Made by a program: the position numbers and the translations under genes. Shown here piece by piece: positions 1 to 30,639 of a DNA stretch of 30,639 bases. The notes beneath the pieces are model-generated. The model ran no database searches and was not told the DNA's origin. It saw only the letters and a list, made by a program, of their open reading frames with translations. The DNA is taken from the IMG/VR virus record IMGVR_UViG_3300045988_023566, positions 1-30,639 of that record; one strand, written 5' to 3'. Within the stretch, counting starts at the first letter, position 1. Each line of letters starts with the position of its first letter. Origin of the DNA: a virus.

Positions 1-141
1 GGCTTTCTTCAGGACCATGGTAATGGTCGCGTAGTTGATGGTGAAGTCGGTGCGTGGCTGTCCGTTGCGGTCGGTGCCGGTCTGCCATTTCAGGTCGCCT
101 TCGACGCGTACCGGGGTGCCTTTGTGGAGGTTCTGGAGGTA
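1..141. repeat. Terminal direct repeat, copy 1 of 2 (identical to 30499-30639)
   Basis: Read directly: nt 1-141 (ggctttcttcaggaccatgg...ttctggaggta) recur base-for-base at 30499-30639. The repeat lies inside one ORF (ssb), so it is a circular-assembly overlap or terminal redundancy rather than a functional repeat. Confidence 0.95.
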
Positions 142-342
142 GGTGGCGGCGAGGCGCTGGTCGTATTCGAAGATCGTGGCGAACATCGTGTCGTGGTCGA
201 CCCACTGGCCGGTCTGCTTGTCCTTGTGGCTGCCGTTGGCGGCTACGCGGATGAGGAGGTATGGGGTGCCGTTCTTGGTCTGCTTGGATTCAGGGTCTGC
301 GACTAGGCGGGCGGAGGGGAGGATGATGTGCGGGTCGTTCAT
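1..342 (-). CDS. ssb: Single-stranded DNA-binding protein, N-terminal OB-fold part (gene crosses the window ends and continues at 30498..30391)
   Basis: ATG at 342-340. Translation is MNDPHIILPSARLVADPESKQTKNGTPYLLIRVAANGSHKDKQTGQWVDHDTMFATIFEYDQRLAATYLQNLHKGTPVRVEGDLKWQTGTDRNGQPRTDFTINYATITMVLKKA..., a typical SSB OB-fold pattern. It is absent from the ORF track because the window edge cuts it. Confidence 0.85.
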   Translation of the reverse strand, partial: MNDPHIILPSARLVADPESKQTKNGTPYLLIRVAANGSHKDKQTGQWVDHDTMFATIFEYDQRLAATYLQNLHKGTPVRVEGDLKWQTGTDRNGQPRTDFTINYATITMVLKKA

Positions 343-365
343 TGGTGTATTGTCCTTTCTTTTTG

Positions 366-1190
366 TCAGTTGGTGGTGGTTTCGATGGTTTCGTTCAGTC
401 GGGTCTCGCCGAGTCGTCGGTGGAGGAGGGCCAAGCCTTTTCTGGTGATCTTGACGGTCGGGGCGAAAGCGAAGAAGCTGCCGTCTTTATGCTGTCCGTG
501 CGATCTTGATTCTACCAAGACTAGGTGTCCGGCTTTCACGCGTTCCGAGGCTGCCCACCATGTGCCGGCATGCCGGTATATCCAACCGTTCTGGTTGAGC
601 CATTCTCGCAATTCTTTCTCGCCGATGGGCGTGCCAGCGTTCGAGAGCAGTTTCGCGGCTTCCCTGACCAGTAGGGCGTCTGGTACGTTGGTGAAGTCAT
701 CCAATGCCTTCGCTTTCGGTTCCAGTTCCTTGATTTGGTTTTCGGCTTCGATTCGCTTGGTTCGTTCCTCTTTCAGGTCTGTTAGCAGTCTGATACCGAA
801 ATCAGGATCGGCAAGGATCTGGTCGATGGTGGCTTCGGTGGCGTAAATGCCATGCTTGCGGATGGACGGCAGTACCTCATGCGTCACCCAACGCTGGAAG
901 CGCCTAACGAATTTCTTCTGCTCGCCGTCGAGGTATCCAAGCTCGCGGTTGAGAATCGCACGGTAGAGGCCGGCCTCGGTGATAACCGTCATGTTCTGCA
1001 CGCCGCCACGGGGGGTGGGCACTTGGTGCATACCCTTTTCGTCGCGGTCAAGATTTCGAGCCATGTCTTTCGCGCTTCCATATCCGAGAATCTTGGCGAT
1101 GTCGGATGCGACGAACATCACTTCGTCGCCATCGGCCAGTGCCCTGACCTGGTTGTTTTCAAACTCGAATGGTTGGATTTCGGTATTCAT
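366..1190 (-). CDS. Phage antirepressor, Bro-N domain plus KilAC/ANT-type C-terminal domain (paralog 2)
   Basis: 274-aa ORF. The N-terminus (FEFENNQVRALADGDEVMFVASDIAKILGY) matches the Bro-N pattern. The C-terminus (LDDFTNVPDALLVREAAKLL...GWIY) matches the KilAC antirepressor pattern. The C-terminal half is very similar to ORF 1207..1989. Confidence 0.8.
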   Translation of the reverse strand: MNTEIQPFEFENNQVRALADGDEVMFVASDIAKILGYGSAKDMARNLDRDEKGMHQVPTPRGGVQNMTVITEAGLYRAILNRELGYLDGEQKKFVRRFQRWVTHEVLPSIRKHGIYATEATIDQILADPDFGIRLLTDLKEERTKRIEAENQIKELEPKAKALDDFTNVPDALLVREAAKLLSNAGTPIGEKELREWLNQNGWIYRHAGTWWAASERVKAGHLVLVESRSHGQHKDGSFFAFAPTVKITRKGLALLHRRLGETRLNETIETTTN

Positions 1191-1206
1191 TTTATTGCCT
1201 TTTTTG

Positions 1207-1989
1207 TCAGTGGAGGGTGTTTTCGAAAGTCTCGTTCAGGCGGGTTTCGCCGAGACGCTGGTGGAGTAGCGATAGGCCTTTGCGGGTGATTCGTACGGTC
1301 GGGGGGAAAGCGAATTTCGTGCCGTCTGCTTTGGTGCCGTGTTTTGTGGACATGACCATTACGAGGTGGCCGGCCGTGCAGTGTTTCGCTGTGGCGTGCC
1401 ATGAGCCATTGGATTTGTAGATCCAGTCGTTGGCTGTCATCCATTCGCGCAGTTGGTTTTCGCTGATTGGCGTGCCTGCGTTGGAGAGGATTTTGGCGGC
1501 GTCGCGGACGAGGAGTCGGTCTTCCACGTTGGTGAAATCGTCTAGGGCTTTGGCTTTCGGTTCCAGTGCCTTGACTTTTTCCTGCTCTTCCTTCAGCTTG
1601 GTTGCGAGTTGGATAAGGAAGTCCGGGCTGGTAAGGGCCTTGTTGATGGTCTGTTGGGTCATGTATGCGCCATGCTTGCGGATGGTGGGGAGCACCTCGT
1701 GAGTTACCCAACGCTGGAACTCGTGGGCCTCCGGCTTACGGGAACGCATGATCAGCTTGTATAATCCCGGCTCGCTGATGAAAACCGGCGCTTTACCGCC
1801 GTTCTGGGCAATATCCGTACTACGGACATTGGTGATTTCGTCTTCGTCGAGGTATTCGCGAAGATGGTTAGTGCCGGTGCCGAGGATGTTGCACACATCC
1901 TGTCCTGAGAACCATGGTTCGCCAGTATTGTCTGTCAGGGTGCGCAGCGATGTGGCGTTGAAGTCGAATGTTTGGATTTCGGCGTTCAT
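1207..1989 (-). CDS. Phage antirepressor, Bro-N plus KilAC/ANT-type domain (paralog 1)
   Basis: 260-aa ORF. N-terminus FDFNATSLRTLTDNTGEPWFSGQDVCNILG (Bro-N). C-terminus LDDFTNVEDRLLVRDAAKILSNAGTPISENQLREWM...TVRITRKGLSLLHQRLGETRLNE is nearly collinear with the downstream paralog. Confidence 0.8.
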   Translation of the reverse strand: MNAEIQTFDFNATSLRTLTDNTGEPWFSGQDVCNILGTGTNHLREYLDEDEITNVRSTDIAQNGGKAPVFISEPGLYKLIMRSRKPEAHEFQRWVTHEVLPTIRKHGAYMTQQTINKALTSPDFLIQLATKLKEEQEKVKALEPKAKALDDFTNVEDRLLVRDAAKILSNAGTPISENQLREWMTANDWIYKSNGSWHATAKHCTAGHLVMVMSTKHGTKADGTKFAFPPTVRITRKGLSLLHQRLGETRLNETFENTLH

Positions 1990-2015
1990 TTGGTTTCCTT
2001 CTTTGCTTGGTGATG

Positions 2016-2048
2016 TTTAAGGGGCGAACGATATGTTCACCCCTTAAA
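2016..2048 (-). other. Stable hairpin between the HTH gene and the first antirepressor gene
   Basis: TTTAAGGGG-C-GAAC-GATAT-GTTC-A-CCCCTTAAA; the arms are perfectly complementary (9 bp plus 4 bp). There is no U-tract on the minus strand, so it may be an attenuator, processing site or operator rather than a classical terminator. Confidence 0.5.
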
Positions 2049-2067
2049 TGGTTGGTTGGTTGGATGG

Positions 2068-2247
2068 TTACTCGTTGTCCGAGTGGCATTCCTTGTCGGG
2101 GATTACGTCCGGGTCGAGGAAGTAGCATCTGCCGACTTTGACTGCGTGGAGTCGTCCTTCGCGGATGAAGCGGCGGACGGTCTGGATGTTGAGCTTCCAG
2201 CGGTTGGCGTATTCAGGGACTGTTGCTGTATATGTTTTAGCGTTCAT
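2068..2247 (-). CDS. Small HTH DNA-binding protein, excisionase/MerR-like (HTH_17-type); probably leaderless
   Basis: MNAKTYTATVPEYANRWKLNIQTVRRFIREGRLHAVKVGRCYFLDPD fits the Xis/AlpA-type pattern (..IqTvrR.ir.G.l.avKvGr...). The track start at 2256 overlaps the TATAAT box, so the second ATG (2247), 7 nt after the -10, is preferred. Confidence 0.7.
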   Translation of the reverse strand: MNAKTYTATVPEYANRWKLNIQTVRRFIREGRLHAVKVGRCYFLDPDVIPDKECHSDNE

Positions 2248-2254
2248 ACGTCTC

Positions 2255-2283
2255 ATTATATAACGCGTCGACTATTCTTGCAA
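2255..2283 (-). promoter_or_regulatory. Leftward early promoter: TTGCAA - 17 nt - TATAAT, 7 nt upstream of ATG 2247
   Basis: The minus strand reads TTGCAAgaatagtcgacgcgttaTATAATgagacgtATG. This is a near-consensus sigma70/SigA-type -35 and -10 with 17-nt spacing. The expected start site falls at or next to the ATG, giving a leaderless mRNA. Confidence 0.7.
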
Positions 2284-2341
2284 TCTATTTCGCGTCGGTG
2301 TGTTACTGGCATGTGTGAAGTAGATCGGAGGTTTTGGGTAT

Positions 2342-2385
2342 AAAAAAGTGCTCAACCGGAAAGAGGGCGAAAACCGGTTGAGCAC
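2342..2385 (-). terminator. Perfect 12-bp stem hairpin with a T6 tail on the minus strand, in the divergent control region
   Basis: GTGCTCAACCGG (2348-2359), a 14-nt loop, then CCGGTTGAGCAC (2374-2385), preceded on the + strand by AAAAAA (2342-2347). Read on the minus strand this is a hairpin followed by TTTTTTA. It could alternatively be a palindromic operator. Confidence 0.55.
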
Positions 2386-2483
2386 TGTCCAAGGGGAAAG
2401 CGGATCACAATGAGGACAAGAACCATCAAAGCACTCTTTCTTCTGGATTGCAAATCGGTCCATGCGGCGGATTGTCATTGTTC

Positions 2484-2510
2484 GGCGTGTCGCGAGAGTG
2501 ATCGTAATAT
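2484..2510 (+). promoter_or_regulatory. Candidate rightward promoter P0: GGCGTGTC motif plus TAATAT -10
   Basis: GGCGTGTC at 2484-2491 and TAATAT at 2505-2510, about 55 nt upstream of the SD/ATG of gene 2568. The 5' UTR contains a small hairpin GTAGGAcatgaaATCCTAC. Confidence 0.45.
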
Positions 2511-2567
2511 TATGTGTATATCAAACAACGTAGGACATGAAATCCTACACCTAGAAAGGAAACAGAA

Positions 2568-2789
2568 ATGTCCGAGAACAACAACAACAACGACAACGAG
2601 AACGTCCAGCCGCAGGCCGCCCCACAGCCGATCATCATCAACAACGTGATGGGCACACAGCCGGACGACAGCGGCAAGAAGAAGGCCCCCGGGTTCCTCA
2701 AGGTACTCATCTATTCCGTCCTTACGGGTGGCATCTACTTCTTCTACTGGCTCGTCAAGATGCTGAGCGGCGGATACCGCACCAAGTAA
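2568..2789 (+). CDS. Small membrane protein with an Asn-rich N-terminus and one C-terminal TM segment (DUF4234-like GGIYxFYW motif)
   Basis: SD aaaggaaacagaaATG. 73 aa; the C-terminus FLKVLIYSVLTGGIYFFYWLVKML is hydrophobic. Codons end in C/A like the neighbouring genes. Confidence 0.7.
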   Translation: MSENNNNNDNENVQPQAAPQPIIINNVMGTQPDDSGKKKAPGFLKVLIYSVLTGGIYFFYWLVKMLSGGYRTK

Positions 2790-2806
2790 CTTCAGACAGA
2801 TAAGAT

Positions 2807-2850
2807 AATCCCCGTCCCTAGTCTTTCGACCAGAGGCGGGGATTATTATT
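2807..2850 (+). terminator. Hairpin plus T-rich tail after gene 2568..2789
   Basis: AATCCCCG (2807-2814) pairs with CGGGGATT (2837-2844) and is followed by ATTATTATT. The loop is long (22 nt), so this is only moderately convincing. Confidence 0.45.
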
Positions 2851-2929
2851 ATTCAAGGAAAAGCAGCCGGGGCGGGAAACCAATAAAACGCCCCGACGCT
2901 CATAATCCTACCACAAAAGGAGGTTCTAA

Positions 2930-3340
2930 ATGGAAATCATGCTGGACAACGGAGCGTACAAACCGTCACGAGGCCACGAGACCGACGCAGGGCTTGATCT
3001 GCGTACGCCAAAGGACGTGACGGTACCGGCGTACGGAAGCGCGATAGTCGATACTGGCGTGCACGTGGCATTGCCGCATGGATGCGCTGGACTGCTCGTC
3101 AGCAAGAGCGGACTCAACGTCAGGCACGACATCACGAGCACCGGACTCATCGACGAAGGTTATACCGGGAGCATCGTGGTCAAGCTCTACAATCACGGCG
3201 GCGGGGATTACCAGCTTGCGGCCGGAGACAAGATCACGCAGCTGGTCGTGTTCCCGGTGGTCCGCGAGTCATTGGAGCAGGTGTCTGCGTTCAATGCGAC
3301 GGAACGTGGCGACAACGGTTTCGGAAGCACCGGACGGTAA
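2930..3340 (+). CDS. dut: dUTP diphosphatase (trimeric dUTPase)
   Basis: SD aaaggaggttctaaATG. dUTPase motifs are present: AGLDL, SKSGL, GLIDEGYTG, and RGDNGFGSTG at the C-terminus. Confidence 0.92.
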   Translation: MEIMLDNGAYKPSRGHETDAGLDLRTPKDVTVPAYGSAIVDTGVHVALPHGCAGLLVSKSGLNVRHDITSTGLIDEGYTGSIVVKLYNHGGGDYQLAAGDKITQLVVFPVVRESLEQVSAFNATERGDNGFGSTGR

Positions 3341-3343
3341 GCC

Positions 3344-3679
3344 ATGTGGAACGGACGGAGCAAATATCATGCCAAGAAGACGACCGTGGACGGCATTACC
3401 TTCGATTCGAAGCGTGAGGCCGACAGATACACGGTCTTGAAGCGAATGGAGCAGGAAGGAGCCATAGAAGGCCTCAGGAGGCAGGTGCGCTACGAGCTCA
3501 TCCCGTCCTTCGACGTGGATGGCAAGCACTACAGGCCCGTCTATTATGTGGCTGACTTCGTCTACCGTGAGGATGGCCATGAGGTCGTCGAAGACGTCAA
3601 AGGCATGAGGACCGACGTGTACCGACTCAAGAGCAAGCTCTTCGCACGACGGTACGGCAAGTTCATCAAGGAGACGTGA
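3344..3679 (+). CDS. DUF1064-family protein (PD-(D/E)XK-like phage protein)
   Basis: GRSKYHAKKTTVDGITFDSKREADRYTVL...YYVADFVYREDGHEVVEDVKGMRTDVYRLKSKLF matches the characteristic DUF1064 pattern (KY.a.k....G..FdSk.Ea..y..L; aDF.y...g...veDvKG..t..y.lK). Confidence 0.8.
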   Translation: MWNGRSKYHAKKTTVDGITFDSKREADRYTVLKRMEQEGAIEGLRRQVRYELIPSFDVDGKHYRPVYYVADFVYREDGHEVVEDVKGMRTDVYRLKSKLFARRYGKFIKET

Positions 3680-3698
3680 CGGCCTAAGGAACGGGCAT

Positions 3699-3746
3699 GG
3701 CCCCGGTTGGTCTAGGGAGGAATCCCGGACCGGCCGGGGCCTTTTC
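3699..3746 (+). terminator. Rho-independent terminator after the dut-DUF1064 unit
   Basis: A long imperfect hairpin: GGCCCCGG..GGTC..GGGA-ggaa-TCCC..GACC..CCGGGGCC (3699-3741), followed by TTTTCG. Confidence 0.75.
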
Positions 3747-3793
3747 GTTGGCGTCGACAAAAAGGCAGGAGAGGCAGAAAAGCAAGCCAGCCT

Positions 3794-3876
3794 CAGTATT
3801 CAGGTATCAACCCTCAATACCTAGGTATCGACCCCCCAATACCTAGGTATCGACCCCCAGTACATAGGTATCGAGC
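3794..3876. repeat. Iteron family A: four tandem 21-22-bp repeats (cAATACCTAGGTATCGACCCC)
   Basis: Copies at 3794-3814, 3815-3836, 3837-3857 and 3858-3876. The two middle copies are identical apart from one extra C in the 3' C-run and contain the perfect 10-bp palindrome TACCTAGGTA. The outer copies are degenerate (cAGTATTCAGGTATCAACCCT and cAGTACATAGGTATCGAGC). Confidence 0.9.
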
Positions 3877-3878
3877 AA

Positions 3879-3933
3879 AGACCCTTCTACTAGACCCTTC
3901 TACTAGAAGATCCTTCTACTAGACCCTTCTAAA
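3879..3933. repeat. Iteron family B: four 13-bp direct repeats (AGACCCTTCTACT)
   Basis: 3879-3891 and 3892-3904 are identical. 3908-3920 is AGATCCTTCTACT and 3921-3933 is AGACCCTTCTAAA. Periods are 13, 16 and 13 bp. Confidence 0.9.
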
Positions 3934-3937
3934 TAAT

Positions 3938-3957
3938 GCGGCTCCGCGGGGAGCCGC
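3938..3957. other. Perfect 8-bp GC-rich hairpin GCGGCTCC-gcgg-GGAGCCGC
   Basis: Read directly; it sits between iteron family B and the first D element. Confidence 0.7.
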
Positions 3958-4033
3958 GTTGCACTCCCGAGTGGAGCTAATCCCAATCCCAGGGGATTCG
4001 GAGCCTAGACCGATCGGAGCTGGGTCTCGGTGG

Positions 4034-4116
4034 CTTCGGTGACCGAGGCATTGGGCCATGGGATCTGACCTGATGTCTTCCAGGCTTCTTCCATGGCTCT
4101 GAGCAGAGGAGGAGGA
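4034..4116 (+). repeat. D1: first copy of a roughly 80-nt imperfect direct repeat containing a CCATGG-centred 11-bp stem (candidate structured RNA or DNA element)
   Basis: cttcggtgaccgaggcattgggccatgggatc...ttccatggctctgagcagaggaggagga. The 5' arm GGGCCATGGGA (4053-4063) pairs with TTCCATGGCTC (4089-4099). It is about 90% identical to D2 outside the loop. Confidence 0.7.
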
Positions 4117-4170
4117 ATAGGGTGGAGTCATCGGGAGCTCTTTCAACCCCCCCTACTGAGTGATAAGCCT

Positions 4171-4253
4171 ACCCTCAAAATGAGGGTGCCAACTCTCAAA
4201 ATGAGGGTGGCCAACACTCAAAATGAGTGTTAGCTAAACCTCAAAATGAGGAC
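4171..4253. repeat. Iteron family C: four copies of the palindromic core CTCAAAATGAG spaced 21-23 bp apart
   Basis: Cores start at 4174, 4195, 4217 and 4240. Copy 1 extends to ACCCTCA-AAA-TGAGGGT and copy 3 to CACTCA-AAA-TGAGTG. Confidence 0.9.
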
Positions 4254-4375
4254 TCATATATATAGCTCTATAGGGATAGGTAGATACTCTAGTTAGATAG
4301 AGATAAGAGAGAGAAAGAAAGATAAATCTTTCTTTCCAAAGAGAGAGAAACCGAAACCAGTCTTCCAAATCAATC
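4254..4375. other. AT-rich block with a purine/pyrimidine mirror tract and a perfect 10-bp inverted repeat (candidate DNA-unwinding element)
   Basis: catatatatagctctatagggataggtagatactctagttagatagagataagagagagaaagaaagataaatctttctttcc... GAAAGAAAGA (4313-4322), loop taaa, TCTTTCTTTC (4327-4336). This looks like the most AT-rich stretch of the window and is flanked by D1/C iterons and D2. Confidence 0.6.
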
Positions 4376-4383
4376 CTTGGACA

Positions 4384-4464
4384 CTTCGGTGACTGAGGCA
4401 TTGAGCCATGGGATCCTCTCGATACTGTCCACGCTCCTTCCATGGCTCTAAGCATCGAGGAGGA
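4384..4464 (+). repeat. D2: second copy of the roughly 80-nt hairpin element
   Basis: cttcggtgactgaggcattgagccatgggatc...ttccatggctctaagcatcgaggagga. The stem is GAGCCATGGGA (4403-4413) with TTCCATGGCTC (4438-4448). It is followed by a second perfect stem, AGCATCGA (4451-4458) with TCGATGCT (4478-4485). Confidence 0.7.
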
Positions 4465-4639
4465 TACGGTCTTGGCTTCGATGCTGCCCTTCGGGCCTTG
4501 GTCCCGGTTCCCGGACTGAATGGGCAGGGAGGAGAGTTGGTCTGTGCTTGGCTTGGGTGGTTCTCTCGCCGCTTGGCGTTCTCGATGCTTTTCGTTGCTG
4601 TTTTGGGCTGGAATGTCGCTTTCGTGCGTAAAGGCCTTT

Positions 4640-4695
4640 TTGACGGGCTGTCGTGGGTGGACCTTGACGAGTTATCGTGTTTGACGGGAAAATCG
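4640..4695 (+). repeat. Three TTGACGRG-N3/4-TCG repeats within a local G+T-rich island
   Basis: TTGACGGGctgTCG (4640), TTGACGAGttaTCG (4664) and TTGACGGGaaaaTCG (4681). The surrounding 4500-4760 region is G/T-rich on the + strand, unlike its flanks. Confidence 0.6.
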
Positions 4696-4820
4696 GTTTG
4701 AGGGGCCTTTACGTGCGTTCTGGAGGCATGTGCGGTAAAAAGCATGCGGGAGGGATGCTGTAGATGAGTGAACGAGCCGTGCCGGACCGTCCGCCTTCCA
4801 CGCTTTTCAAGCTTGTGTGC

Positions 4821-4826
4821 TATACT
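4821..4826 (+). promoter_or_regulatory. Candidate -10 box TATACT for gene 4861..5106
   Basis: cttgtgtgcTATACTtatagc, about 35 nt upstream of the ATG. No clear -35 was seen. Confidence 0.4.
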
Positions 4827-4860
4827 TATAGCAACGCTAAAACCAAGAAAGGAACCAACA

Positions 4861-5106
4861 ATGAGCGTTTACGAAGCCATCGGCAATCTCCTCGTCGAAC
4901 GGTACGGAGTCCACTTCAGCGAGGAAGGCGAACAGAAATCCCGCAAGTTCTTTGCCGGCCTGTGCGCGAAGTTCAGCGAAGAGGAAGTACTCGAAGCATG
5001 GAAGACCGCATGCGGGAAGTACGACAATCCGACTACCGCGCTCTCGAAGCTCGGCGGCATTCTCTACAATCGCAGTCTCTTCAGCTCGTTCATTGAGAAA
5101 AATTAA
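4861..5106 (+). CDS. Hypothetical protein (81 aa)
   Basis: SD aagaaaggaaccaacaATG. MSVYEAIGNLLVERYGVHFSEEGEQKSRKFF... The track ORF 4768..5106 is in the same frame, but the internal start has the SD. Codon usage is C/A-ending like neighbouring genes. Confidence 0.65.
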   Translation: MSVYEAIGNLLVERYGVHFSEEGEQKSRKFFAGLCAKFSEEEVLEAWKTACGKYDNPTTALSKLGGILYNRSLFSSFIEKN

Positions 5107-5115
5107 AAAAACATC

Positions 5116-5144
5116 GGCGTGTCGTCCAAAAAACGTGATACACT
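5116..5144 (+). promoter_or_regulatory. Candidate promoter P1: GGCGTGTC motif plus extended -10 TGATACACT
   Basis: GGCGTGTC at 5116-5123 and TGaTACACT at 5136-5144, upstream of the replication genes. Confidence 0.5.
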
Positions 5145-5206
5145 AGAGACATACGCCATGTGAGATACCCCTACCGCTCATGTGGAGGATGTCAATCACA
5201 TGGCAT

Positions 5207-5277
5207 GAATCCCATTGATTGCTACCGGGGTAGGGCCGGTAGCAGTCGGTGGGATTCACTTTTTCCCGAAGGAAAAA
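5207..5277 (+). promoter_or_regulatory. Structured leader of the replication gene: nested 8+8-bp hairpin, T5 run, then an SD-sequestering hairpin
   Basis: GAATCCCA (5207-5214) pairs with TGGGATTC (5250-5257). Nested inside, GCTACCGG (5221-5228) pairs with CCGGTAGC (5236-5243). These are followed by acTTTTT. Then TTTTTCC (5260-5266), loop cgaa, GGAAAAA (5271-5277), which overlaps the SD gaaggaaaaa of ATG 5282. Confidence 0.55.
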
Positions 5278-5281
5278 CATC

Positions 5282-6037: not shown

Positions 6038-6099
6038 GACACGACCCCAGCCGATAACCGCACACAAGCGTTACCGGCCCCTACCTATAACCCGGTAAC

Positions 6100-6140
6100 G
6101 ACACGCCGAAACCCCCCACAACACATACATGAGATACAAT
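6100..6140 (+). promoter_or_regulatory. Inverted GACACGCC motif plus TACAAT -10 upstream of the loader gene
   Basis: GACACGCC at 6100-6107 is the reverse complement of GGCGTGTC. TACAAT lies at 6135-6140 inside the palindrome ATACATGagatacaatcaCATGTAT. It is preceded by the hairpin CGTTACCGG (6069-6077) with CCGGTAACG (6092-6100). Confidence 0.4.
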
Positions 6141-6169
6141 CACATGTATACACAACGAAAGGAATACTA

Positions 6170-7015: not shown

Positions 7016-7045
7016 CAGCACCCCAACAAGACAAAGGAAACCGAA

Positions 7046-24001: not shown

Positions 24002-24076
24002 TTTTCCTCCGGGTAAATGAATAGGTCCTACCGTCAATTGTAACGATAGGACCCAATGGTGTTTATTGGCTGGCTG

Positions 24077-24355: not shown

Positions 24356-24357
24356 TA

Positions 24358-26172
24358 TCAGGCCTTCGGCTTGATGACCACTGCGGACTTCTCAGCGTCC
24401 AGACCGCCACCCGCGTAGATTTCCTGCAGGTATTCGTTGGTGTTGGTCTGCAATGCGAAGTTCGTGAAGGATTCGACGCTCGTGTCGCCGACGAGCGTAT
24501 AGTGAGAAGCGGACAGGACCACGCCAGCCACCTTCTTGTCATCATCCGCAGTCCACCATTCCGGGGTGATGATCTGGGAGACGCCGAGAGCACGGGCGAG
24601 CGTGTCGTCACCGCCGAGAGCGATGAAGCTGTTGCCGTTAGCGTCGGCGCTCATGAGCAGGTCGGCTACCGTGTCCGCATTGCAGACGAGAACCTTGTTG
24701 CCCTGTGCGCGGACCATGTGGGAAGCCTTGACGAAGCCCATGAGCGGGGTTTCCTCGCCGAGCGTGTAGGAGCGTGCGAACTTGTTTCCAGCCCATTCCG
24801 ACTTGGCGTCGGCTGCGTCGGTGGTGATGGCACGGAAGTGGGCCATGTCTTCGTAGCCGCCGAGCACAGCCTGACGTTCGATGGTCTGGACGATGTAGTT
24901 CGGCAGTTCGGAGAGGATGTAGCGGAGCAGTGCGCCCGGCTTCTGCGTACGACGGATGTCACCCTTGTTGAGGGTGATGTACTTGTACGTGTAGTCGGCG
25001 GTGAGTTCACGTTTCACGAAGGAGGGGGTCTGTTCCTGCTTCTTGGTGCCGTAGGAGGAGACCGGATAACCGTGGGCGCGGGTCGCTTCGGTCAGGCCGA
25101 GAATGTTGCCGCCGATGGTGAGGCGGTCCATGCCGGTCTTCTGGAAGAGATTCCACAAGCCGCTGCCGCGCGTGTTGAGCGCGTCGCTGATGGTGGTGAT
25201 GGCTTCGGTCGGGATGAACTTGTCCACGTCGGTCTTGCCTACGCCGAAGGATGCGGTGTCGGCCATGTTACGGGACACGGTGTCGGCCCATTCCTTGTGG
25301 AATGCTTCGACGCCCTTGTTGTCGTTGTCGATGAGGGTGCGTTCGAATGCGGCCATGGCATCCGGGGAGTCGAGCCACGTCTCACGAGTGTGGGAGAAGG
25401 AGGCGACGCCGGACTGCTTGGCGGCACGGTTGCTCTTGTTGATGATGACGAGCGGACGCTTGTTGGCGGACTGGGTCGGTTCTTCCGGGGCGGTGGTCAC
25501 TGTGGTGTCTCCTTCGTTGGTGTCGGTCTGGTCGTCGATCGCTTCCGTGATGTCGGATACCGCATCGTTCATGATGTCGGTAACGGACGAGGTGAGGTTT
25601 GCTGCCTCGTCGGGGTCGAGCTTGAACTGGGCGACGGTGCGTGCCAGCTTGGTCATGAGGCCATTATCCATGGTGTCTCCTTTTCGGTTGTTGATTGAGG
25701 TGAATGCGGCTCGGGGGTCGGCTCCACGGTAGACGACGCTGATTTCTACCAGTTCGCCATTGTGGATGATGCCGTCTTTGCCGGGCTGTCGGTTGAACTC
25801 GACGGTGATGCTGAAACTGTTGGTCAGGCATCCGTCGGCTGCGAGCTGGCGGATGCGTTCTCCGTTGTCGACTTCACTGAGTCTGGCTTCGGCCATGAGT
25901 CCGGCGTCGGTCATCCATAGGCGGGTGATGGTGCCGGCTTGGGCTTCGACTGATGGCATGTGGTCGATGAGGAGGGGGAGTGAGAGCCTGTCGGAATCAT
26001 CGAGGTCTGACACGAGTTTCAGGGTCCCGTCGGTGAGTGGGGCTTTGAGTGTGTCGAGGTCTACGGTGAGTCCGCCGCACATTACCTTGCCGGAGTTGGC
26101 GAGGAATGTGAGGGTTCGGCCTTCGGTTTCAGTGTTGCCGCCGGTGTGGGTGAAGCTCTTTCGAGTGGTCAT
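24358..26172 (-). CDS. Fused prohead protease - scaffold/linker - HK97-fold major capsid protein
   Basis: 604 aa. The N-terminal roughly 170 aa resemble an HK97-type prohead protease (...NSFSITVEF...GELVEISVVYRGADPRA). An acidic linker follows (DDQTDTNEGDTTVTTAPEEP). The C-terminal roughly 330 aa have the size and composition of a major capsid protein. Confidence 0.75.
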   Translation of the reverse strand: MTTRKSFTHTGGNTETEGRTLTFLANSGKVMCGGLTVDLDTLKAPLTDGTLKLVSDLDDSDRLSLPLLIDHMPSVEAQAGTITRLWMTDAGLMAEARLSEVDNGERIRQLAADGCLTNSFSITVEFNRQPGKDGIIHNGELVEISVVYRGADPRAAFTSINNRKGDTMDNGLMTKLARTVAQFKLDPDEAANLTSSVTDIMNDAVSDITEAIDDQTDTNEGDTTVTTAPEEPTQSANKRPLVIINKSNRAAKQSGVASFSHTRETWLDSPDAMAAFERTLIDNDNKGVEAFHKEWADTVSRNMADTASFGVGKTDVDKFIPTEAITTISDALNTRGSGLWNLFQKTGMDRLTIGGNILGLTEATRAHGYPVSSYGTKKQEQTPSFVKRELTADYTYKYITLNKGDIRRTQKPGALLRYILSELPNYIVQTIERQAVLGGYEDMAHFRAITTDAADAKSEWAGNKFARSYTLGEETPLMGFVKASHMVRAQGNKVLVCNADTVADLLMSADANGNSFIALGGDDTLARALGVSQIITPEWWTADDDKKVAGVVLSASHYTLVGDTSVESFTNFALQTNTNEYLQEIYAGGGLDAEKSAVVIKPKA

Positions 26173-26181
26173 GTCACCCTT

Positions 26182-26364
26182 TCATTCGGTGGTAGTGATG
26201 TTGTCGTGAACGTCCTTTGAGGGCTTGTGTTCAAGTCCCCATAATAGCATGATGTGATATTCCAGTAGGCTTCGGCAATTTGGGCATTTGAGTGTCACGT
26301 CGGTATCGCGCGCGCATGAGCCGAGGTAGCGTCCGCATTTCCTGCAGTGGATGTCGTACGTCAT
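26182..26364 (-). CDS. Com-like zinc-ribbon protein
   Basis: MTYDIHCRKCGRYLGSCARDTDVTLKCPNCRSLLEYHI has two CxxC pairs with spacing and flanks like the Mu Com translational activator (IRCKNCNKLL....IEIRCPRCK). Confidence 0.6.
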   Translation of the reverse strand: MTYDIHCRKCGRYLGSCARDTDVTLKCPNCRSLLEYHIMLLWGLEHKPSKDVHDNITTTE

Positions 26365-28488
26365 TTAATCCTCCACCACTTCGTAGTCTTCGTAGCATCT
26401 GCAGTTCGGGTGCCCGTTAGGGGCGATCATGTTTTCGAAACTGTTGACGTATGTATGGTCTCCGACTTCGACGCTTGCACCGTGATCCAGGTATGAGCCG
26501 TCAAGGCCGATGGTGGTGCCTTCCATGTGTTTGCAGAAGTCGCATGTGTTGCTGTCTCCGGTGGTTCGCCATACCTTTTGCAGTCGGACGCCTAGCGTTT
26601 CGCTCATGTTGCGTGCGCTATACAGGCTGCCGAGTCTTTGGGCTTGGACGGTTTCGCATCGTGCGATGAGTTCTGCGTGTTCGTTGCCGAACCGGGTCAG
26701 TTCGTCGCGTAGTCGGTGTGCGTTCCACTGTTCCACGTCGGCCTTGGCGAGGAGGTCGAGGGTTTTCGTGGTGATGGTTTGGGAGGACGTGTTGGCGATT
26801 GTTTCCAAGTGGTCGAGGTATGCGGTCTTCACGTTTGTTGGGAGTTTGGTCCAGTCGTAGAGTTTCTGCCAGTCGGTTTGCGTGTAGCCTTGCACTTCGA
26901 CTGCGATTGGGTTGTCGGGGTAGGTTTCGGCCCATGCGGTGATGACTTGTTCGAGGTTGAGTCCGGTTTTGTGGGCGTATTCGGTGAGGTGTGTCATGAG
27001 GTCGTCTTCCACGTCGTGGATCCACTGCTGGCCGATGGTTTTGAGGTCGTCGTGGAGGCTGTTCTGGGAGCGTTTTGCTAGTCCGATGACGCGGTTGACG
27101 TAAGTGCGGGTGGCGGTTAGCAGGTGTGGTTCGGTTGGTGTGTCGTCGACTGGTTTGGCGGCTTTCGTGGTGTTTCTCGCGGATGGGAGGATGGGGGTGT
27201 TGGGCGTGTAGGGGTGTAGGTCGAGTCGGCGGTATGCTTCGGGGAGTCCGAGTGCTTCGACTGCGGTTTCGACGGTTGCGCCCATGTTGACGAGTTGGAT
27301 GAGGTTGTTGATGCGGATTTGTTGGGTTTCCGCTTGGACTTTCTCGACTTCGGTCTGTGCGGGGAGGTCGAGGGTGAATGTGATTCCGTAGCCAAGGCCG
27401 CCTGTGATGCGGTCGAGTTCGAATTGCCATTTGTCCCAGACTGTCATGCAGAGGGGTTTGAGGGTGTTTTCAATGAAGGCGCGTTCGGCCATTTCGGCGT
27501 TGGCGTAGGTTTGGCCGTTGTCGATGCCTCGGATGATGTCGGGGACTGCGAGCGCGTTGGCTAGGCGGTTGTTGACTACGTCGGATACGGTTTGCAGATC
27601 GAGCGTGTCGTTGGAGTTCTGGAATGGGACCCAGACGAGTTTGCTGGTTTGGCTGGGCTTGTGGGTTAGGGGGTCGACGGGCACCATATTGTAGACGATG
27701 CCGTTATTGTTGCCGGCTCCGCGGAAGGTCTCCTCGAGACGTGCGCGGTTGCGTTGGAAGTCTTCGGCGTTTTCGGATACGATGCCGAGCATGCCGGCTG
27801 GTACTGCGTTGTTGCCGAAGAAGCCGCGTTCGTAGTCGGCGATCATGTCGTCGACGTTGGCCCATTTTTTGATGGTCATGGCGGGGCTGATGCCGCGCGT
27901 GGGGTCGTTGGGGTGACGGCTGTACGAAAGCGCGATTGTTTCGTTGCGGGTGAATTCGTATGGGCGGGCTCCGTCGCCGAGGTCCATGGTCACGCGGTGG
28001 TACCAGTCGGAGCGGGTGTCGTTGTAGACGCGGCTGTTCAATGGGAGGAGGGTGTAGCCGGTGATGTTGTCGGGGGTGATGTTGCCGCCGGGTCCTTCGG
28101 TGGTCCAGACGAGGATGTCCACGTGTGATTGGGTGAGTATGCCTGAGGCGATGAGTTTGAGGAATTCGAGGCAGCTGTAGGTGTCGTTGGGCGCGTATAG
28201 GGCGCTTAACGCGGCTGGTGCGGGGTCGAGTTTCCTTCCGTCCGCCGTGACGGCGTAGGGGATTACTGTGCTGAAGCGTTGTGCGATGGCGTTGACGTAC
28301 GGGAAGATGTTGTCGTACGTGTCATGCATCGGGATGTTGTTGCCGCCGATTGTCTGCCATGCGTTGCCGCCGGCTGGGGTGGGTGTCGAGTGGGGGGCGT
28401 CGGTTCGGCCGAAAGCGTTCGTGAAGCCTGAGCGTAGGTTGCTGAGAATGGTCAATTTGCCTCGTTTCGGATTGGGGTGTTCTGTCAT
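26365..28488 (-). CDS. Portal protein fused to a MuF/SPP1 gp7-like head morphogenesis domain
   Basis: 707 aa in the position after TerL. The C-terminus VWRTTGDSNTCDFCKHMEGTTIGLD...APNGHPNCRCYEDYEV is the MuF-family signature (W.t..D.rvc..C......G.......PG.HPNCRC). Confidence 0.8.
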   Translation of the reverse strand: MTEHPNPKRGKLTILSNLRSGFTNAFGRTDAPHSTPTPAGGNAWQTIGGNNIPMHDTYDNIFPYVNAIAQRFSTVIPYAVTADGRKLDPAPAALSALYAPNDTYSCLEFLKLIASGILTQSHVDILVWTTEGPGGNITPDNITGYTLLPLNSRVYNDTRSDWYHRVTMDLGDGARPYEFTRNETIALSYSRHPNDPTRGISPAMTIKKWANVDDMIADYERGFFGNNAVPAGMLGIVSENAEDFQRNRARLEETFRGAGNNNGIVYNMVPVDPLTHKPSQTSKLVWVPFQNSNDTLDLQTVSDVVNNRLANALAVPDIIRGIDNGQTYANAEMAERAFIENTLKPLCMTVWDKWQFELDRITGGLGYGITFTLDLPAQTEVEKVQAETQQIRINNLIQLVNMGATVETAVEALGLPEAYRRLDLHPYTPNTPILPSARNTTKAAKPVDDTPTEPHLLTATRTYVNRVIGLAKRSQNSLHDDLKTIGQQWIHDVEDDLMTHLTEYAHKTGLNLEQVITAWAETYPDNPIAVEVQGYTQTDWQKLYDWTKLPTNVKTAYLDHLETIANTSSQTITTKTLDLLAKADVEQWNAHRLRDELTRFGNEHAELIARCETVQAQRLGSLYSARNMSETLGVRLQKVWRTTGDSNTCDFCKHMEGTTIGLDGSYLDHGASVEVGDHTYVNSFENMIAPNGHPNCRCYEDYEVVED

Positions 28489-28519
28489 ACCATTCTACCG
28501 GCCGTAGGCTACTGGATGG

Positions 28520-29779
28520 CTAGCAGACCATGACGTCCCATGAGGGGAGTTGTGGCGGCTCGTAGCATGCGAGGAGTAGGCTGTCGGCGAGATCCGGGCT
28601 GCCTAGGTTCATGCTGTCCTTGTAGTCTTGTTTGCTTTCGATTTGCCGTTGGTTGCGGCTGTTTATCTGCCATTTGCGGGTGGTGAGTTCGGTGGTGAGC
28701 TTGGCTAGGTCGGTGAGTTGTGGGTTGATGCTGAGTTGGGGGAGCATGGCAGCGAAATCAAACCATAGTTCTGAGGCGATGTTGGGGTATTGGGGGTCTT
28801 TTGGCTTGCCGGCGTAGTTGATGCCGGTGGCGGGTAGTTCCCATGATTTGAGGAGGTCGGTGAGTCCTCCGCCTACGCCTGTGTCGTCGATGCGGATGTC
28901 GATTGGGTGGTGTTGTGATGCGCGGAGTCTGATCCGTTCGGCGGTGTCGACGATGCTTGAATGCGTCCATGATTCGAGGGTTTCGATACGGTTGCCTTTT
29001 TTGATGGTGAGGGCGGTGCGGTCGTTGCCGTATCGTGCTACGTCGACACCGAATGTGACCGGTCCGTCCGATGGTGTACGGCGGATGGCTTCGTGGATCA
29101 TGTTATCGCTGATGAGTTGGTTGTCGGTGTCCGAGTATGGGAGGCCTAGCCAGATGTGGCCGAAGTCGGTGGTTTCCCGGTCGGCTTCGATCATGGCGAG
29201 CACGTCCGGGCTGAGGAGTCTTTCCACGTCCTTGAATGTGGTGTGCCAATGGCAGGTCTGCCTGTGACGTTCCTCTGAGTCCGAGGTGATGAAGTACGTC
29301 CAGACGGTATCGTGGCTTGTCCGTGGATTCCATGTGAAGATCAGCGTGGAATTGGTTTTGCGGATGGTCGGGATGAGCGTAGTCAGGCTTTCCTTGCCGA
29401 TCGTCTGTGCTTCCTCGACCCAGCACACGTCGATGCCTTCGATGCTTTTAATGCTTTCGAAATTGTTGTGTAGGCCGCGGAAGATGAAAGTGCTGCCGTT
29501 GATGTGGCTGATGCTGTCGCGGGTTATTTCAAAGCCTTGCAAACCGAATTTGCGTATGGTGGCGACGAGGAGCTTGTGCACGGAGTCTGCGATGCTGTTC
29601 TGGAATTCGCGGGCGCATAGGACGGTGATTGGCTGGCTGGCGGCACGGAGTATGAGGCTTTGCGCGACGGCGGTGCTTTTACCGGAGGCTCGACCGCCGG
29701 AATAACAGTAATAACGATATGGTGGCGTCTCCGTGTGGAGCCACCACCATAGGTCTCGGTATGGTCTTGCTATCTGCAT
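28520..29779 (-). CDS. Terminase large subunit (PBSX/Terminase_3-like)
   Basis: Walker A YSGGRASGKSTAVAQ, Walker B-like IDVCWVEEAQ, and a C-terminal RNaseH-like nuclease region (FGVDVARYGNDRTAL...IDDTGVGGG). Confidence 0.92.
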   Translation of the reverse strand: MQIARPYRDLWWWLHTETPPYRYYCYSGGRASGKSTAVAQSLILRAASQPITVLCAREFQNSIADSVHKLLVATIRKFGLQGFEITRDSISHINGSTFIFRGLHNNFESIKSIEGIDVCWVEEAQTIGKESLTTLIPTIRKTNSTLIFTWNPRTSHDTVWTYFITSDSEERHRQTCHWHTTFKDVERLLSPDVLAMIEADRETTDFGHIWLGLPYSDTDNQLISDNMIHEAIRRTPSDGPVTFGVDVARYGNDRTALTIKKGNRIETLESWTHSSIVDTAERIRLRASQHHPIDIRIDDTGVGGGLTDLLKSWELPATGINYAGKPKDPQYPNIASELWFDFAAMLPQLSINPQLTDLAKLTTELTTRKWQINSRNQRQIESKQDYKDSMNLGSPDLADSLLLACYEPPQLPSWDVMVC

Positions 29780-29792
29780 GGGTCCAGTCTAT

Positions 29793-30182
29793 TTACTGGC
29801 TATCCTTGTCGTTTTCCGGGTTGTCGTCGAAGACTTCGAGCGTGATGTGCGGTGGCTCGTAGCCGGTGACCGATACGTCGGTGGACTGGCGGGCCTTGCC
29901 GTCGAGCCGGTCAATATAGTCGGCTGCGACCTTCGGGTCCTTGGAAGCGTTGAGAATGTGTCTGATGGCGATTTTCTGGACCATCGTCAAGTTCGGGTCC
30001 TTTATCTTTTCGTTGAATTCTTCGGCGGTGAGCTTGCTGAATTCGCGGATCCAACGGGTCGGGCTGGTGTCTTTGGTCCATGAGCCTCGGTCCTGTGGAC
30101 GGTCTTGGAAGCCGCCTTTCCCGGTGGGATTGCATGCTCCGCTGACGATTCTGCCTCGATGGTCTCTTACTACTTCGGTCAT
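29793..30182 (-). CDS. Terminase small subunit candidate, leaderless
   Basis: MTEVVRDHRGRIVSGACNPTGKGGFQDRPQDRGSW... contains an NP.GkGG motif common in small terminases, and it lies upstream of TerL. The ATG at 30182 is 7 nt after a TATAAT box. The track start at 30218 would include the promoter. Confidence 0.65.
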   Translation of the reverse strand: MTEVVRDHRGRIVSGACNPTGKGGFQDRPQDRGSWTKDTSPTRWIREFSKLTAEEFNEKIKDPNLTMVQKIAIRHILNASKDPKVAADYIDRLDGKARQSTDVSVTGYEPPHITLEVFDDNPENDKDSQ

Positions 30183-30189
30183 ATTGCCA

Positions 30190-30195
30190 ATTATA
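30190..30195 (-). promoter_or_regulatory. Late-operon -10 box TATAAT, 7 nt upstream of the TerS ATG
   Basis: The minus strand reads ttggaTATAATtggcaatATG. No clear -35 is present; that position is occupied by the upstream terminator stem. Confidence 0.55.
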
Positions 30196-30206
30196 TCCAA
30201 ATAAGG

Positions 30207-30240
30207 GAAAAGCCCCACGTTGTGGTGGGGCTGTGTTTTT
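30207..30240 (-). terminator. Terminator of the leftward early operon (bidirectional-looking)
   Basis: AGCCCCAC-gttgtg-GTGGGGCT (30211-30232). On the minus strand it is followed by TTTTCCCTTATTT; on the + strand by gtgTTTTT. Confidence 0.75.
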
Positions 30241-30376
30241 AGCTGAGGATGAAGCCGATGAGGAGCTTCATGAGGGCTATCGTACCTGTCGCGCCGAGGA
30301 TTGTCACGGCTGTGAGGAGGAGGTAGGCGGCGATGGTGCCTATCTTATAGCTGAGTGGATGCTTTTTGGGGTTCAT
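30239..30376 (-). CDS. Small hydrophobic membrane protein (45 aa); below the ORF-track cutoff
   Basis: SD gaaaggaacacaATG. MNPKKHPLSYKIGTIAAYLLLTAVTILGATGTIALMKLLIGFILS*. Confidence 0.6.
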   Translation of the reverse strand: MNPKKHPLSYKIGTIAAYLLLTAVTILGATGTIALMKLLIGFILS

Positions 30377-30390
30377 TGTGTTCCTTTCTG

Positions 30391-30639
30391 TCACCATTCG
30401 TCATTGTAGGATTGTGCGGACGGGGCGGGCTGGTTGATGTTGCTCCATGGGTCCTGTCGTTGTGGCGTGGACTGTTGTGGCGTGGACTGCTGGGCTGGGG
30501 CTTTCTTCAGGACCATGGTAATGGTCGCGTAGTTGATGGTGAAGTCGGTGCGTGGCTGTCCGTTGCGGTCGGTGCCGGTCTGCCATTTCAGGTCGCCTTC
30601 GACGCGTACCGGGGTGCCTTTGTGGAGGTTCTGGAGGTA
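30391..30639 (-). CDS. ssb: SSB, C-terminal part (30499-30639 duplicates 1-141)
   Basis: The same frame continues ...KKAPAQQSTPQQSTPQRQDPWSNINQPAPSAQSYNDEW*. This is a Pro/Gln-rich linker with a tandem QSTPQ repeat and an acidic-aromatic tip (NDEW), as in SSB C-terminal tails. Stop at 30391-30393. Confidence 0.85.
   Translation of the reverse strand, partial: YLQNLHKGTPVRVEGDLKWQTGTDRNGQPRTDFTINYATITMVLKKAPAQQSTPQQSTPQRQDPWSNINQPAPSAQSYNDEW
30499..30639. repeat. Terminal direct repeat, copy 2 of 2
   Basis: Identical to nt 1-141. Confidence 0.95.

Follow-up and report, generated by a model that had tools for sequence, protein, structure and literature searches.

Strand asymmetry of base composition has more than one known cause. 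In T7- and T4-type phage genomes, the skew is coupled to transcription. In cellular replicons, the leading strand carries more G than C and more T than A (Lobry-type skew), and such replichore asymmetry, reportedly described by Lobry in 1996 and by McInerney in 1998, is said to be most extreme in Borrelia burgdorferi and in some endosymbionts, where codon usage is separated by replication strand. Here, we have analyzed a DNA stretch of 30,639 nucleotides, the IMG/VR virus record IMGVR_UViG_3300045988_023566 (hereafter, the window, meaning this whole stretch). It is the genome of an uncultured siphovirus with a keto/amino strand asymmetry that changes sign twice around the circle and is independent of the orientation of the genes.

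The closest described systems are the phages of Cutibacterium acnes. In 14 P. acnes phages, the GC skew was found to show "no clear difference" at the coding-strand switch and was ascribed to replication, not to transcription, the origin being placed in a non-coding region (Marinelli et al., 2012, mBio 3:e00279-12, PMC3448167). That study dealt with GC skew only, without AT skew, codon usage, substitution spectrum, or polarity (Marinelli et al., 2012), and later papers on C. acnes phages draw the skew merely as a ring of the genome map. In the literature searched, whose coverage was incomplete, we have found neither an analysis of the P. acnes phages beyond GC skew nor a prior description of the skew in the clade of probable Bifidobacterium phages to which the window belongs. 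This kind of pattern had already been reported for C. acnes phages in 2012, and the window represents a second, unrelated clade with the trait. The first-pass annotation of the window, which considered such a strong asymmetry undescribed for a tailed phage, was mistaken on this point, since the C. acnes phage PA6 reaches the same amplitude.

PA6 was picked for comparison because it is an actinophage of two-arm layout whose cos ends are known. The keto skew (G+T-A-C) of its + strand at fourfold-degenerate sites (hereafter, fourfold keto) is +0.47 to +0.79 for genes of either strand, as large as in the window. One sign flip lies in an AT-rich (GC down to 0.24), repeat-rich region at 27.6-28.8 kb, and the other, razor-sharp, at the physical ends. 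Pahexavirus (PA6) and the window are both siphoviruses of ~30 kb and ~54% GC from anaerobic actinobacterial hosts, with a two-arm layout and a strong skew that ignores the coding-strand switch. In both, one sign change of the skew falls within non-coding, repeat-rich DNA where the early genes begin, and the polarity of the skew relative to that DNA is the same. However, there is no detectable sequence relationship between them (no megablast match), and the window is not a member of the genus. The replication module of PA6 consists of a primase and a helicase, whereas that of the window consists of DnaD-like and DnaC-like proteins. In addition, PA6 keeps one sign over ~93% of its genome and flips for the second time at the cos ends, whereas the second flip of the window is a 4-kb ramp within the late operon. 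Near the right end of PA6, we have also observed a 29-nt inverted repeat, 93% complementary (27880-27908 and 29138-29166), that brackets the AT-rich repeat region and gp46, as well as nine CTTAAAG-type repeats between 27913 and 28795.

Two arcs of opposite composition

The window is a complete circular siphovirus assembly with a unit of 30,498 bp, bases 30499-30639 being a copy of bases 1-141 (a terminal direct repeat of 141 nt). The skews, computed in 1-kb windows as the first-pass annotation had proposed, change sign twice, GC skew spanning -0.32 to +0.44 and AT skew -0.46 to +0.52. Keto skew, measured per gene at fourfold-degenerate sites or over all sites, delimits the following regions:

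5200..19900, no strand: arc A, + strand A+C-rich (all-site keto -0.2 to -0.36; pooled fourfold keto -0.4 to -0.9)
17500..21500, no strand: broad ramp with a skew sign change (pooled fourfold keto -0.57 to +0.77)
20000..30498, on through 1..2300, no strand: arc B, + strand G+T-rich (all-site keto +0.2 to +0.45; pooled fourfold keto +0.4 to +0.89)
2300..5200, no strand: zone of weak or mixed skew with one sign change within

Positions 1..2300 are arc B carried across the arbitrary start of the circular assembly. The zone at 2300..5200 contains a divergent transcription start, the genes for a dUTPase and a DUF1064 protein, and ~1.1 kb of non-coding DNA with repeat arrays. The arcs measure ~15-17.6 kb and 13-15 kb (~55% and 45% of the 30.5-kb circle), and the switch positions are the same in 9 genomes. 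An A+C-rich + strand from ~2.3 to ~20.5 kb had been noted in the first-pass annotation with the right sign but with boundaries that need revision: the zero crossing is found at ~19.9-20.0 kb, in the N-terminal third of the tape-measure protein (TMP) gene and inside the 17.5-21.5 kb ramp, and the stretch of 2.3-5.2 kb is weakly skewed.

The genes are arranged in a canonical siphovirus layout, with one collinear minus-strand late operon, to which the two antirepressor genes belong, and a plus-strand early region. Those on which the asymmetry is best read are listed here:

366..1989, minus strand: two antirepressor paralogues (Bro-N/KilAC), sense strand A+C-rich, fourfold keto -0.37 and -0.40
2930..3340, plus strand: dUTPase, compositional outlier, fourfold keto +0.03
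13130..20576, minus strand: lysis and tail module, sense strand G+T-rich, codons ending in G/T
14491..14835, plus strand: embedded gene (phrog_1397), sense strand A+C-rich, fourfold keto -0.89, 90% A/C-ending codons
18528-20576, minus strand: TMP gene, part of the tail module, sense fourfold keto +0.20
20579..30218, minus strand: packaging, head, and proximal tail genes, sense strand A+C-rich

The fourfold keto of the sense strand ranges from -0.29 to -0.74 in the + genes of 3344-12688, from +0.29 to +0.59 in the minus-strand tail and lysis genes of 13130-18509, and from -0.44 to -0.83 in the minus-strand head and packaging genes of 20579-30218, with the exception of one outlier. The two minus-strand groups are opposite in sign, so the sign does not track gene orientation as it would in a transcription-coupled asymmetry. 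The embedded + gene at 14491-14835 shares the + strand composition of the minus-strand genes that flank it. Read on the + strand, the arc A region (~5 to 19 kb) has a fourfold keto of -0.3 to -0.9 regardless of gene strand, the region running from ~20.5 kb round to ~2.3 kb has one of +0.4 to +0.8, and the fourfold AT skew of arc A is +0.6 to +0.93 for genes of both strands. These results bear out the central claim of the first-pass annotation, i.e., that the asymmetry follows DNA strand and position and not gene orientation. They also agree with its two specific expectations, namely a change of fourfold sign between the minus-strand genes of 13130-19500 and the other minus-strand genes, and an embedded gene that matches the plus-strand genes.

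Third positions are A or C in 76-79% of the codons of most genes, the embedded gene reaching 90% and the tail and lysis genes having 25%; "almost all codons", as had been written for the C/A-ending set, gives the direction correctly and overstates the extent. The codons quoted from 6170, 15789, 14491, and TerL are correct, and the string quoted for the endolysin is absent from the first 16 endolysin codons, which were those looked at. The antirepressor genes (366-1989), taken as much less skewed and of recent acquisition, are indeed slightly less skewed, but the difference is modest (+0.37 and +0.40 on the + strand) and the case for recent acquisition is weak.

The skew at codon position 3 is far above that at positions 1 and 2, and its sign is unrelated to the direction of transcription. 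Whichever the gene orientation, the fourfold AT skew keeps a magnitude of 0.6-0.9 (positive or negative), and orientation shifts the GC component alone, by about 0.2, which is consistent with a preference for C-ending codons. An artefact of amino-acid composition was ruled out because the effect is found at fourfold sites and the proteins differ little from their orthologues in the Bifidobacterium asteroides phage BlindUri1, relative to which their composition is only slightly shifted. The fourfold profile is a smoothed square wave with plateaus and has no gradient decaying from either switch, and this speaks for fork direction acting in a binary way rather than for an influence of the time spent single-stranded. 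The amplitude is far from ordinary: |keto| never rises above ~0.2 per kb in the control phages (~75 unrelated or distant loci plus L5, phiC31, BFK20, and c2), compared with 0.3-0.45 in the window.

Two genes, those of the dUTPase and of an open reading frame (ORF) at 24077-24355, are outliers in this profile. The dUTPase and DUF1064 genes (2930-3679) are far less skewed than their neighbors (pooled fourfold keto -0.07 to -0.14). The relatives described below are most divergent at 1-5 kb, and partial contigs break there too, which is consistent with a frequent exchange of accessory genes; the dUTPase gene was probably exchanged recently. The ORF at 24077-24355 (minus strand), placed between the capsid and connector genes, has a sense fourfold keto of +0.13. 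It carries a tandem 9-bp repeat, GCCGGACCA, in ~6 copies (window 24177-24229) that is probably collagen-like, as the weak match of the ORF to the Pfam Collagen family suggests. The contigs of 6 relatives end at 24.13-24.18 kb, which looks like an assembly break in a variable repeat. Moreover, in the capsid part of the gene encoding a fusion of protease and major capsid protein (MCP) (24358-25500), the fourfold AT skew reverses locally (+0.3, versus -0.6 to -0.85 around it), and this preference for T- over A-ending sense codons is probably due to translational selection in the most highly expressed gene. We found no tRNAs or structured RNAs able to account for the local anomalies.

A substitution process still at work in the clade

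Two anchored IMG/VR scans yielded ~39 collinear contigs of 28-31 kb that are 75-92% identical to each other. Eight of these relatives could be stitched to complete genomes, and all 8 repeat the skew profile of the window in window coordinates, a comparison that the first-pass annotation had suggested. The skew architecture is thus common to 9 complete genomes and to ~39 lineages that differ by 8-25% in nucleotides, with a synonymous divergence near saturation. An assembly artefact, i.e., a chimeric or mis-sequenced contig, was ruled out as the source of the skew by the circle that the terminal repeat closes and by the same profile in the 8 independently assembled complete relatives.

To the fourfold sites of three partitions, an unrestricted 12-rate substitution model was fitted on per-gene trees. 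The strand-symmetric model was rejected in every partition, with twice the difference in log-likelihood (2dlnL) being 279, 480, and 778 (6 degrees of freedom). The stationary keto skews calculated from the fitted rates were -0.45, -0.38, and +0.61, against observed values of -0.60, -0.44, and +0.63, and bootstraps agreed with the point estimates. The composition is at equilibrium with an ongoing strand-asymmetric substitution process. This match between stationary and observed composition implies that the G/T-ending codons of the tail module are not a relic of transfer or inversion. In a joint fit, the tail genes go far better with their + strand neighbors (2dlnL 105) than with the head genes (2dlnL 2180).

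The substitution spectrum was expressed as the bootstrap median of each change divided by its complementary change on the + strand. In arc B, C>T exceeds its complement ~3-fold and A>G ~3.7-fold (~1.8-fold by the reciprocals of arc A), the ratio of G>T to C>A is 2.4, and that of A>T to T>A is 6.4; arc A is reciprocal. Once expressed on the G+T-rich strand, the three partitions concur, and C>T, A>G, G>T, and A>T are all raised on that strand. About half of the asymmetry of C>G tracks gene orientation, in keeping with the preference for C-ending codons. In a simulation on the same trees with transition-only asymmetry, the estimator gave transversion ratios of 0.9-1.1, and hence the transversion asymmetry observed is real. 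The deamination of A and C, which the first-pass annotation mentioned as the cause assigned to the mtDNA pattern, does not explain this spectrum by itself, because the asymmetry extends to G>T, to A>T, and in part to C>G, and the simulation excludes an asymmetry of transitions only. The predominance of changes to T on the G+T-rich strand would fit an "A-rule" copying of uracil or abasic lesions.

Candidate origin and terminus, and the polarity of the bias

The switch between 2.3 and 5.2 kb lies beside the replication genes, where the following elements were identified:

3791-3874 (within 3791..3931), no strand: tandem array, 4 copies of 21-22 nt with the palindrome ATACCTAGGTAT
3878-3931 (within 3791..3931), no strand: tandem array, ~4 copies of 13-16 nt, unit CTAGACCCTTCTA
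4167..4253, no strand: iteron array, 4 copies of 21-23 nt, GCCAACNCTCAAAATGAGGGT
5249..6037, plus strand: replication initiator/organizer, HTH_36 and Phg_2220_C (DnaD-like) C-terminal domain
6170..7015, plus strand: DnaC/IstB-like AAA+ helicase loader
9819-10421, plus strand: ERF single-strand annealing protein
10550-11452, plus strand: YqaJ-type exonuclease

The three arrays (3791-3874, 3878-3931, and 4167-4253) are located in a 1.1-kb non-coding stretch upstream of the replication genes, and the iteron array adjoins these genes inside the zone of weak skew. An array with a period of 21-23 nt is kept at the position of the third array in the relatives, some with the CCTCAAAATGAGG unit and others with a different one. 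The N-terminal HTH domain of the initiator is 75-93% identical to that of the window in the 5 loci that have the iteron unit of the window and 58-65% identical in the 12 loci that do not, and the identity of the C-terminal domain does not follow the iteron unit. This co-variation between iteron unit and HTH domain supports the array as the binding site of the initiator, so that, as judged from sequence comparison, it is probably the site bound by the DnaD-like protein and hence the origin of replication. The same non-coding region contains a duplicated segment of ~70 nt (4034-4105 and 4384-4454, 350 nt apart, 89-94% identical), and a patch at 4401-4800 shows a local skew of the opposite sign (keto +0.25).

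At the other switch, at 19.9 kb, we found neither repeat arrays or other origin-like features nor an island of synonymous conservation, and synonymous diversity is there the highest in the genome. The 17.5-21.5 kb ramp is probably the terminus zone where forks meet, a ramp of 4 kb being expected if forks meet at variable positions. The geometry is close to this, since half a circle (15.25 kb) counted from the iterons at 4.2 kb leads to 19.45 kb, compared with the crossing at ~19.9 kb. As the switch falls inside the late operon, head and tail genes of one coding strand have mirror-image codon usage.

The explanation that we favor, with moderate confidence, is that the mirror-image composition results from a bias dependent on fork direction in a genome that replicates by the theta mode, with the origin at the iterons and the terminus at ~19.9 kb. 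According to this model, replication would be bidirectional and carried out by the host replisome, which the DnaD-like initiator and the DnaC-like loader of the phage would recruit to the iteron array at ~4.2 kb. The two forks would converge in a broad zone around 19.9 kb, within the tape-measure gene, and the tail and lysis genes of 13130..20576 would be head-on to the fork coming from the iterons. The direction of fork passage, and not transcription, would set the substitution bias: in each arc, one strand would gain G and T through the excess of C>T, A>G, G>T, and A>T, and its complement would gain A and C. As in replichore-type asymmetry, two sign changes divide the replicon into roughly equal arcs, and the asymmetry arises from strand-asymmetric rates and not from history. 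We infer that the switch points are the origin and the terminus, and which is which, and that the bias is mutational and not a fixation bias. Of the unusual replication mode or long-lived single-stranded DNA suggested in the first-pass annotation, a replication-linked cause remains the best reading, whereas long-lived single-stranded DNA is not established, and it is contradicted if the origin is at the iterons. With that origin, the G+T-rich strand is the template of the leading strand, and therefore the single-strand exposure of the lagging template cannot account for the bias.

Several observations weigh against this model. The cumulative GC skew rises to a maximum at ~5 kb and falls to a minimum at ~20 kb, which by the Lobry rule would put the origin at 20 kb and the terminus at 5 kb. 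If replication starts at the iterons, both arcs have an A+C-rich leading strand, contrary to Lobry polarity, which would hold only with an origin at ~20 kb. The genes at 2.4-3.7 kb, to the left of the iterons, are still weakly A+C-rich on the + strand, and the fourfold sign change is closer to 2.3 kb than to 4.2 kb, unless the accessory genes located there are still on their way to equilibrium. It is also conceivable that the iteron array serves as an operator instead of an origin. Furthermore, substitution rates do not separate mutation from fixation bias, as a keto-favoring selection gives the same pattern, and the per-gene neighbor-joining trees on which the rates were estimated disregard recombination and rate heterogeneity.

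The asymmetry of the window resembles that of bacterial replichores in that two opposite arcs extend between origin and terminus, the effect is strongest at synonymous sites and independent of transcription, and it is of the keto/amino type, with GC and AT skews coupled. In contrast, its amplitude is several-fold larger (fourfold AT skew to 0.9), and an iteron origin gives it an A+C-rich leading strand, a polarity opposite to all cellular cases, with most genes still co-oriented with the forks. With vertebrate mitochondrial DNA (mtDNA), the window shares a comparable fourfold amplitude, a mirror-image codon usage (of opposite strands there, of opposite arcs here), and an excess of C>T and A>G on the G+T-rich strand. 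However, vertebrate mtDNA has one polarity and a gradient tied to single-stranded time, whereas the window has two signs and plateaus, its asymmetry includes transversions, and its proteins are slightly affected. The mtDNA-like pattern invoked in the first-pass annotation thus does not describe the geometry, which is one of two arcs of opposite sign with plateaus. The transcription-coupled skew of phages has a counterpart in the small orientation-linked component of the window (C-ending preference, fourfold GC skew ~0.2), and BlindUri1 and L5 show a weak A+C bias of the sense strand, but the dominant component of the window is independent of gene orientation.

We hold only tentatively, and with some doubt, that the iteron region here and the AT-rich non-coding region in Pahexavirus are truly origins, in which case these phages would combine a polarity opposite to that of every cellular replicon with an mtDNA-like amplitude. 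If true, this would be a sign that these phages of anaerobic Actinobacteria have a fork asymmetry not yet described, for instance one in which uracil or abasic lesions of the leading template are bypassed mutagenically (the "A-rule"), whereas the recombination proteins of the phage mend lagging-side gaps in an error-free manner.

The foremost alternative keeps the classical polarity, with forks or strand displacement starting in the 17.5-21.5 kb zone and converging on the iteron region, which would serve as terminus or fork trap. The G+T-rich strand would then be the lagging template or displaced strand, long single-stranded, whose damage by deamination, depurination, or oxidation would be copied by the "A-rule". 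It is the closest to the mtDNA-like idea of the first-pass annotation, and it agrees with the universal rule, with the cumulative GC-skew minimum at ~20 kb, and with the 5' end of each G+T-rich segment at ~20 kb. The C>T, A>G, G>T, and A>T spectrum is expected from unrepaired lesions of single-stranded DNA and the amplitude is mtDNA-like; in PA6, moreover, a nick-primed strand displacement at the cos ends, where the flip is sharp, would yield the polarity observed. Nevertheless, we consider it unlikely, because 19-21 kb lies inside the TMP ORF, without repeat arrays or non-coding DNA and at the genome maximum of synonymous diversity, and because the iterons matched to the initiator sit at the other switch. 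A 4-kb ramp is unlike a fixed origin, the plateaus do not decay with distance from 20 kb, and the start points required would be non-homologous, at cos in PA6 and in mid-TMP here.

Selection instead of mutation, acting against intrastrand pairing (a strand of only A+C or only G+T cannot fold on itself) or on strand-polar motifs, seems to us very unlikely. It would explain the "target base" rule, by which all six classes of change toward G/T exceed their complements, transversions included, the simulation having excluded an estimator artefact. It does not account, however, for the number of domains, which is exactly two, or for the spacing of their boundaries by 180 degrees, with one boundary at the iterons. 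Protein-level shifts are small and the effect lies chiefly at synonymous sites, and the major capsid gene departs locally, as if translational selection opposed a mutational pressure. To our knowledge, there is no precedent for selection on strand composition at such strength.

An effect of linear ends is highly improbable. The ends would lie at 2.3-4.7 kb, from where the YqaJ 5'->3' exonuclease and ERF, both encoded in the window, would resect inward and leave the 3' halves repeatedly single-stranded and damaged. The polarity fits, as the 3' half of each strand is G+T-rich, the change is sharper at 2.3 kb and broad near the middle of such a map, and the two-arm layout resembles that of actinophages with cos ends between the arms. 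But resection predicts the highest amplitude beside the ends, which is where it is lowest, the maximum being found 5-15 kb away. PA6, whose ends are known, shows the opposite relation (5'-proximal parts G+T-rich), and a packaging site normally adjoins terS, at ~30.3 kb, where nothing changes. The clusters of contig ends at 3.8-4.8 kb and 24.15 kb, which might be taken for physical ends, coincide with the iterons and with the 9-bp tandem repeat, respectively, and are probably accounted for by these repeats.

Finally, a historical relic or artefact, i.e., a tail module acquired or inverted from a phage of opposite composition or a chimeric or mis-sequenced contig, has a negligible chance of being the explanation, for although phage modules are commonly exchanged and the switch is near a module boundary, ~39 lineages keep the pattern, the stationary composition of the tail module equals the observed one (which rules out a horizontally acquired or inverted relic), the late operon is canonical and collinear with the switch inside one gene, and independent circular assemblies agree. 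A protein-primed linear replication of the phi29 or adenovirus type was also rejected, since neither a polymerase nor a terminal protein was found among the scanned ORFs, terminase genes are present, and its requirements clash with the gene layout whichever switch is taken as the ends.

Clade, probable host, and consequences of the asymmetry

The module at 20579..30218 encodes, in order, a putative TerS (assigned from its position), TerL, a portal protein with a Mu-F domain, the protease-MCP fusion, and connectors; it also holds the gene of the major tail protein (assigned from position and gene order) and those of chaperones. The 13130..20576 module encodes an amidase endolysin, fibre-like proteins, Tal, Dit, and TMP, and a probable holin at the end of the late operon (13130) was assigned from its position, without a family match. 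Other plus-strand early genes encode DUF1064, DUF3310, and HTH proteins. Among the scanned ORFs, we found none for a polymerase, primase, helicase, or integrase, and no CI-like repressor was found anywhere in the genome. A small ORF of the divergent region (2068-2256, minus strand) shows weak HTH_17 and excisionase-like matches. The phage may be either virulent or episomal.

The window had no nucleotide match among 50,697 deposited phages (INPHARED). By portal protein, its closest cultured relatives are the B. asteroides phages BlindUri1 and BlindBasel1 (~50% identical), and the closest cellular homologues of its endolysin are from Bifidobacterium and Schaalia; the host is, judging from these similarities, probably a Bifidobacterium. 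A search of representative genomes with the portal protein found no prophage copy. The window is a member of an abundant and diverse clade of gut siphoviruses, uncultured so far.

The skew is not a general trait of the host genus or of actinophages: it is weak in BlindUri1, the other actinophages compared have no extreme skew, and chromosomal and prophage genes of Bifidobacterium are GC3-rich, with a fourfold keto mostly within +/-0.3. Nor is there support for its travelling with the replication module, as phages with DnaC-like loaders 42-67% identical show a moderate skew at most. Three IMG/VR phages of 36-37 kb, with a DnaC-like loader 65-67% identical, have an intermediate skew downstream of the replication genes (keto to -0.26) and might bridge the ordinary and the extreme cases. 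In the more distant IMG/VR 3300045988_069983 (TerL 62% identical, GC 0.60), the skew of the head genes is strong (keto to -0.37) and fades ~9-10 kb downstream of TerL, as in the clade of the window. The tail genes of a prophage of B. choerinum (CP018044, 820-7796) are moderately G/T-ending (sense fourfold keto +0.24 to +0.50), with C-ending neighbors, which is possibly an attenuated form of the tail-module polarity seen in the window.

What is new here, relative to the report on the C. acnes phages, is the two-arc geometry that splits one operon, the quantification of AT skew and codon usage, the substitution spectrum, the link between iterons and initiator, and the recognition that the published origin assignment gives a polarity opposite to the standard rule.

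The asymmetry has practical consequences as well. The A+C-rich strand has 18-24 stop codons per kb, compared with 39-40 on its complement, and this low stop density produces long false ORFs by which gene callers could be misled. Long spurious ORFs (243-377 aa), overlapping real genes in antisense or in a different frame, are seen at 13151-14284 (+), 18282-19091 (+), 22236-22967 (-), and 26618-27430 (-). With mirror-image codon usage within one operon, composition-based host prediction and detection of horizontal transfer will misbehave, and phylogenies inferred for these phages under strand-symmetric substitution models will be misleading.

For an uncultured clade of gut phages, the skew provides a map of fork direction obtained from the sequence alone, with a candidate origin and a candidate terminus. 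Together with the cultivable C. acnes phages, this clade offers a tractable system to study why a replication-linked bias can be ten times that of the host, and the same system bears on why the polarity of that bias may be reversed.

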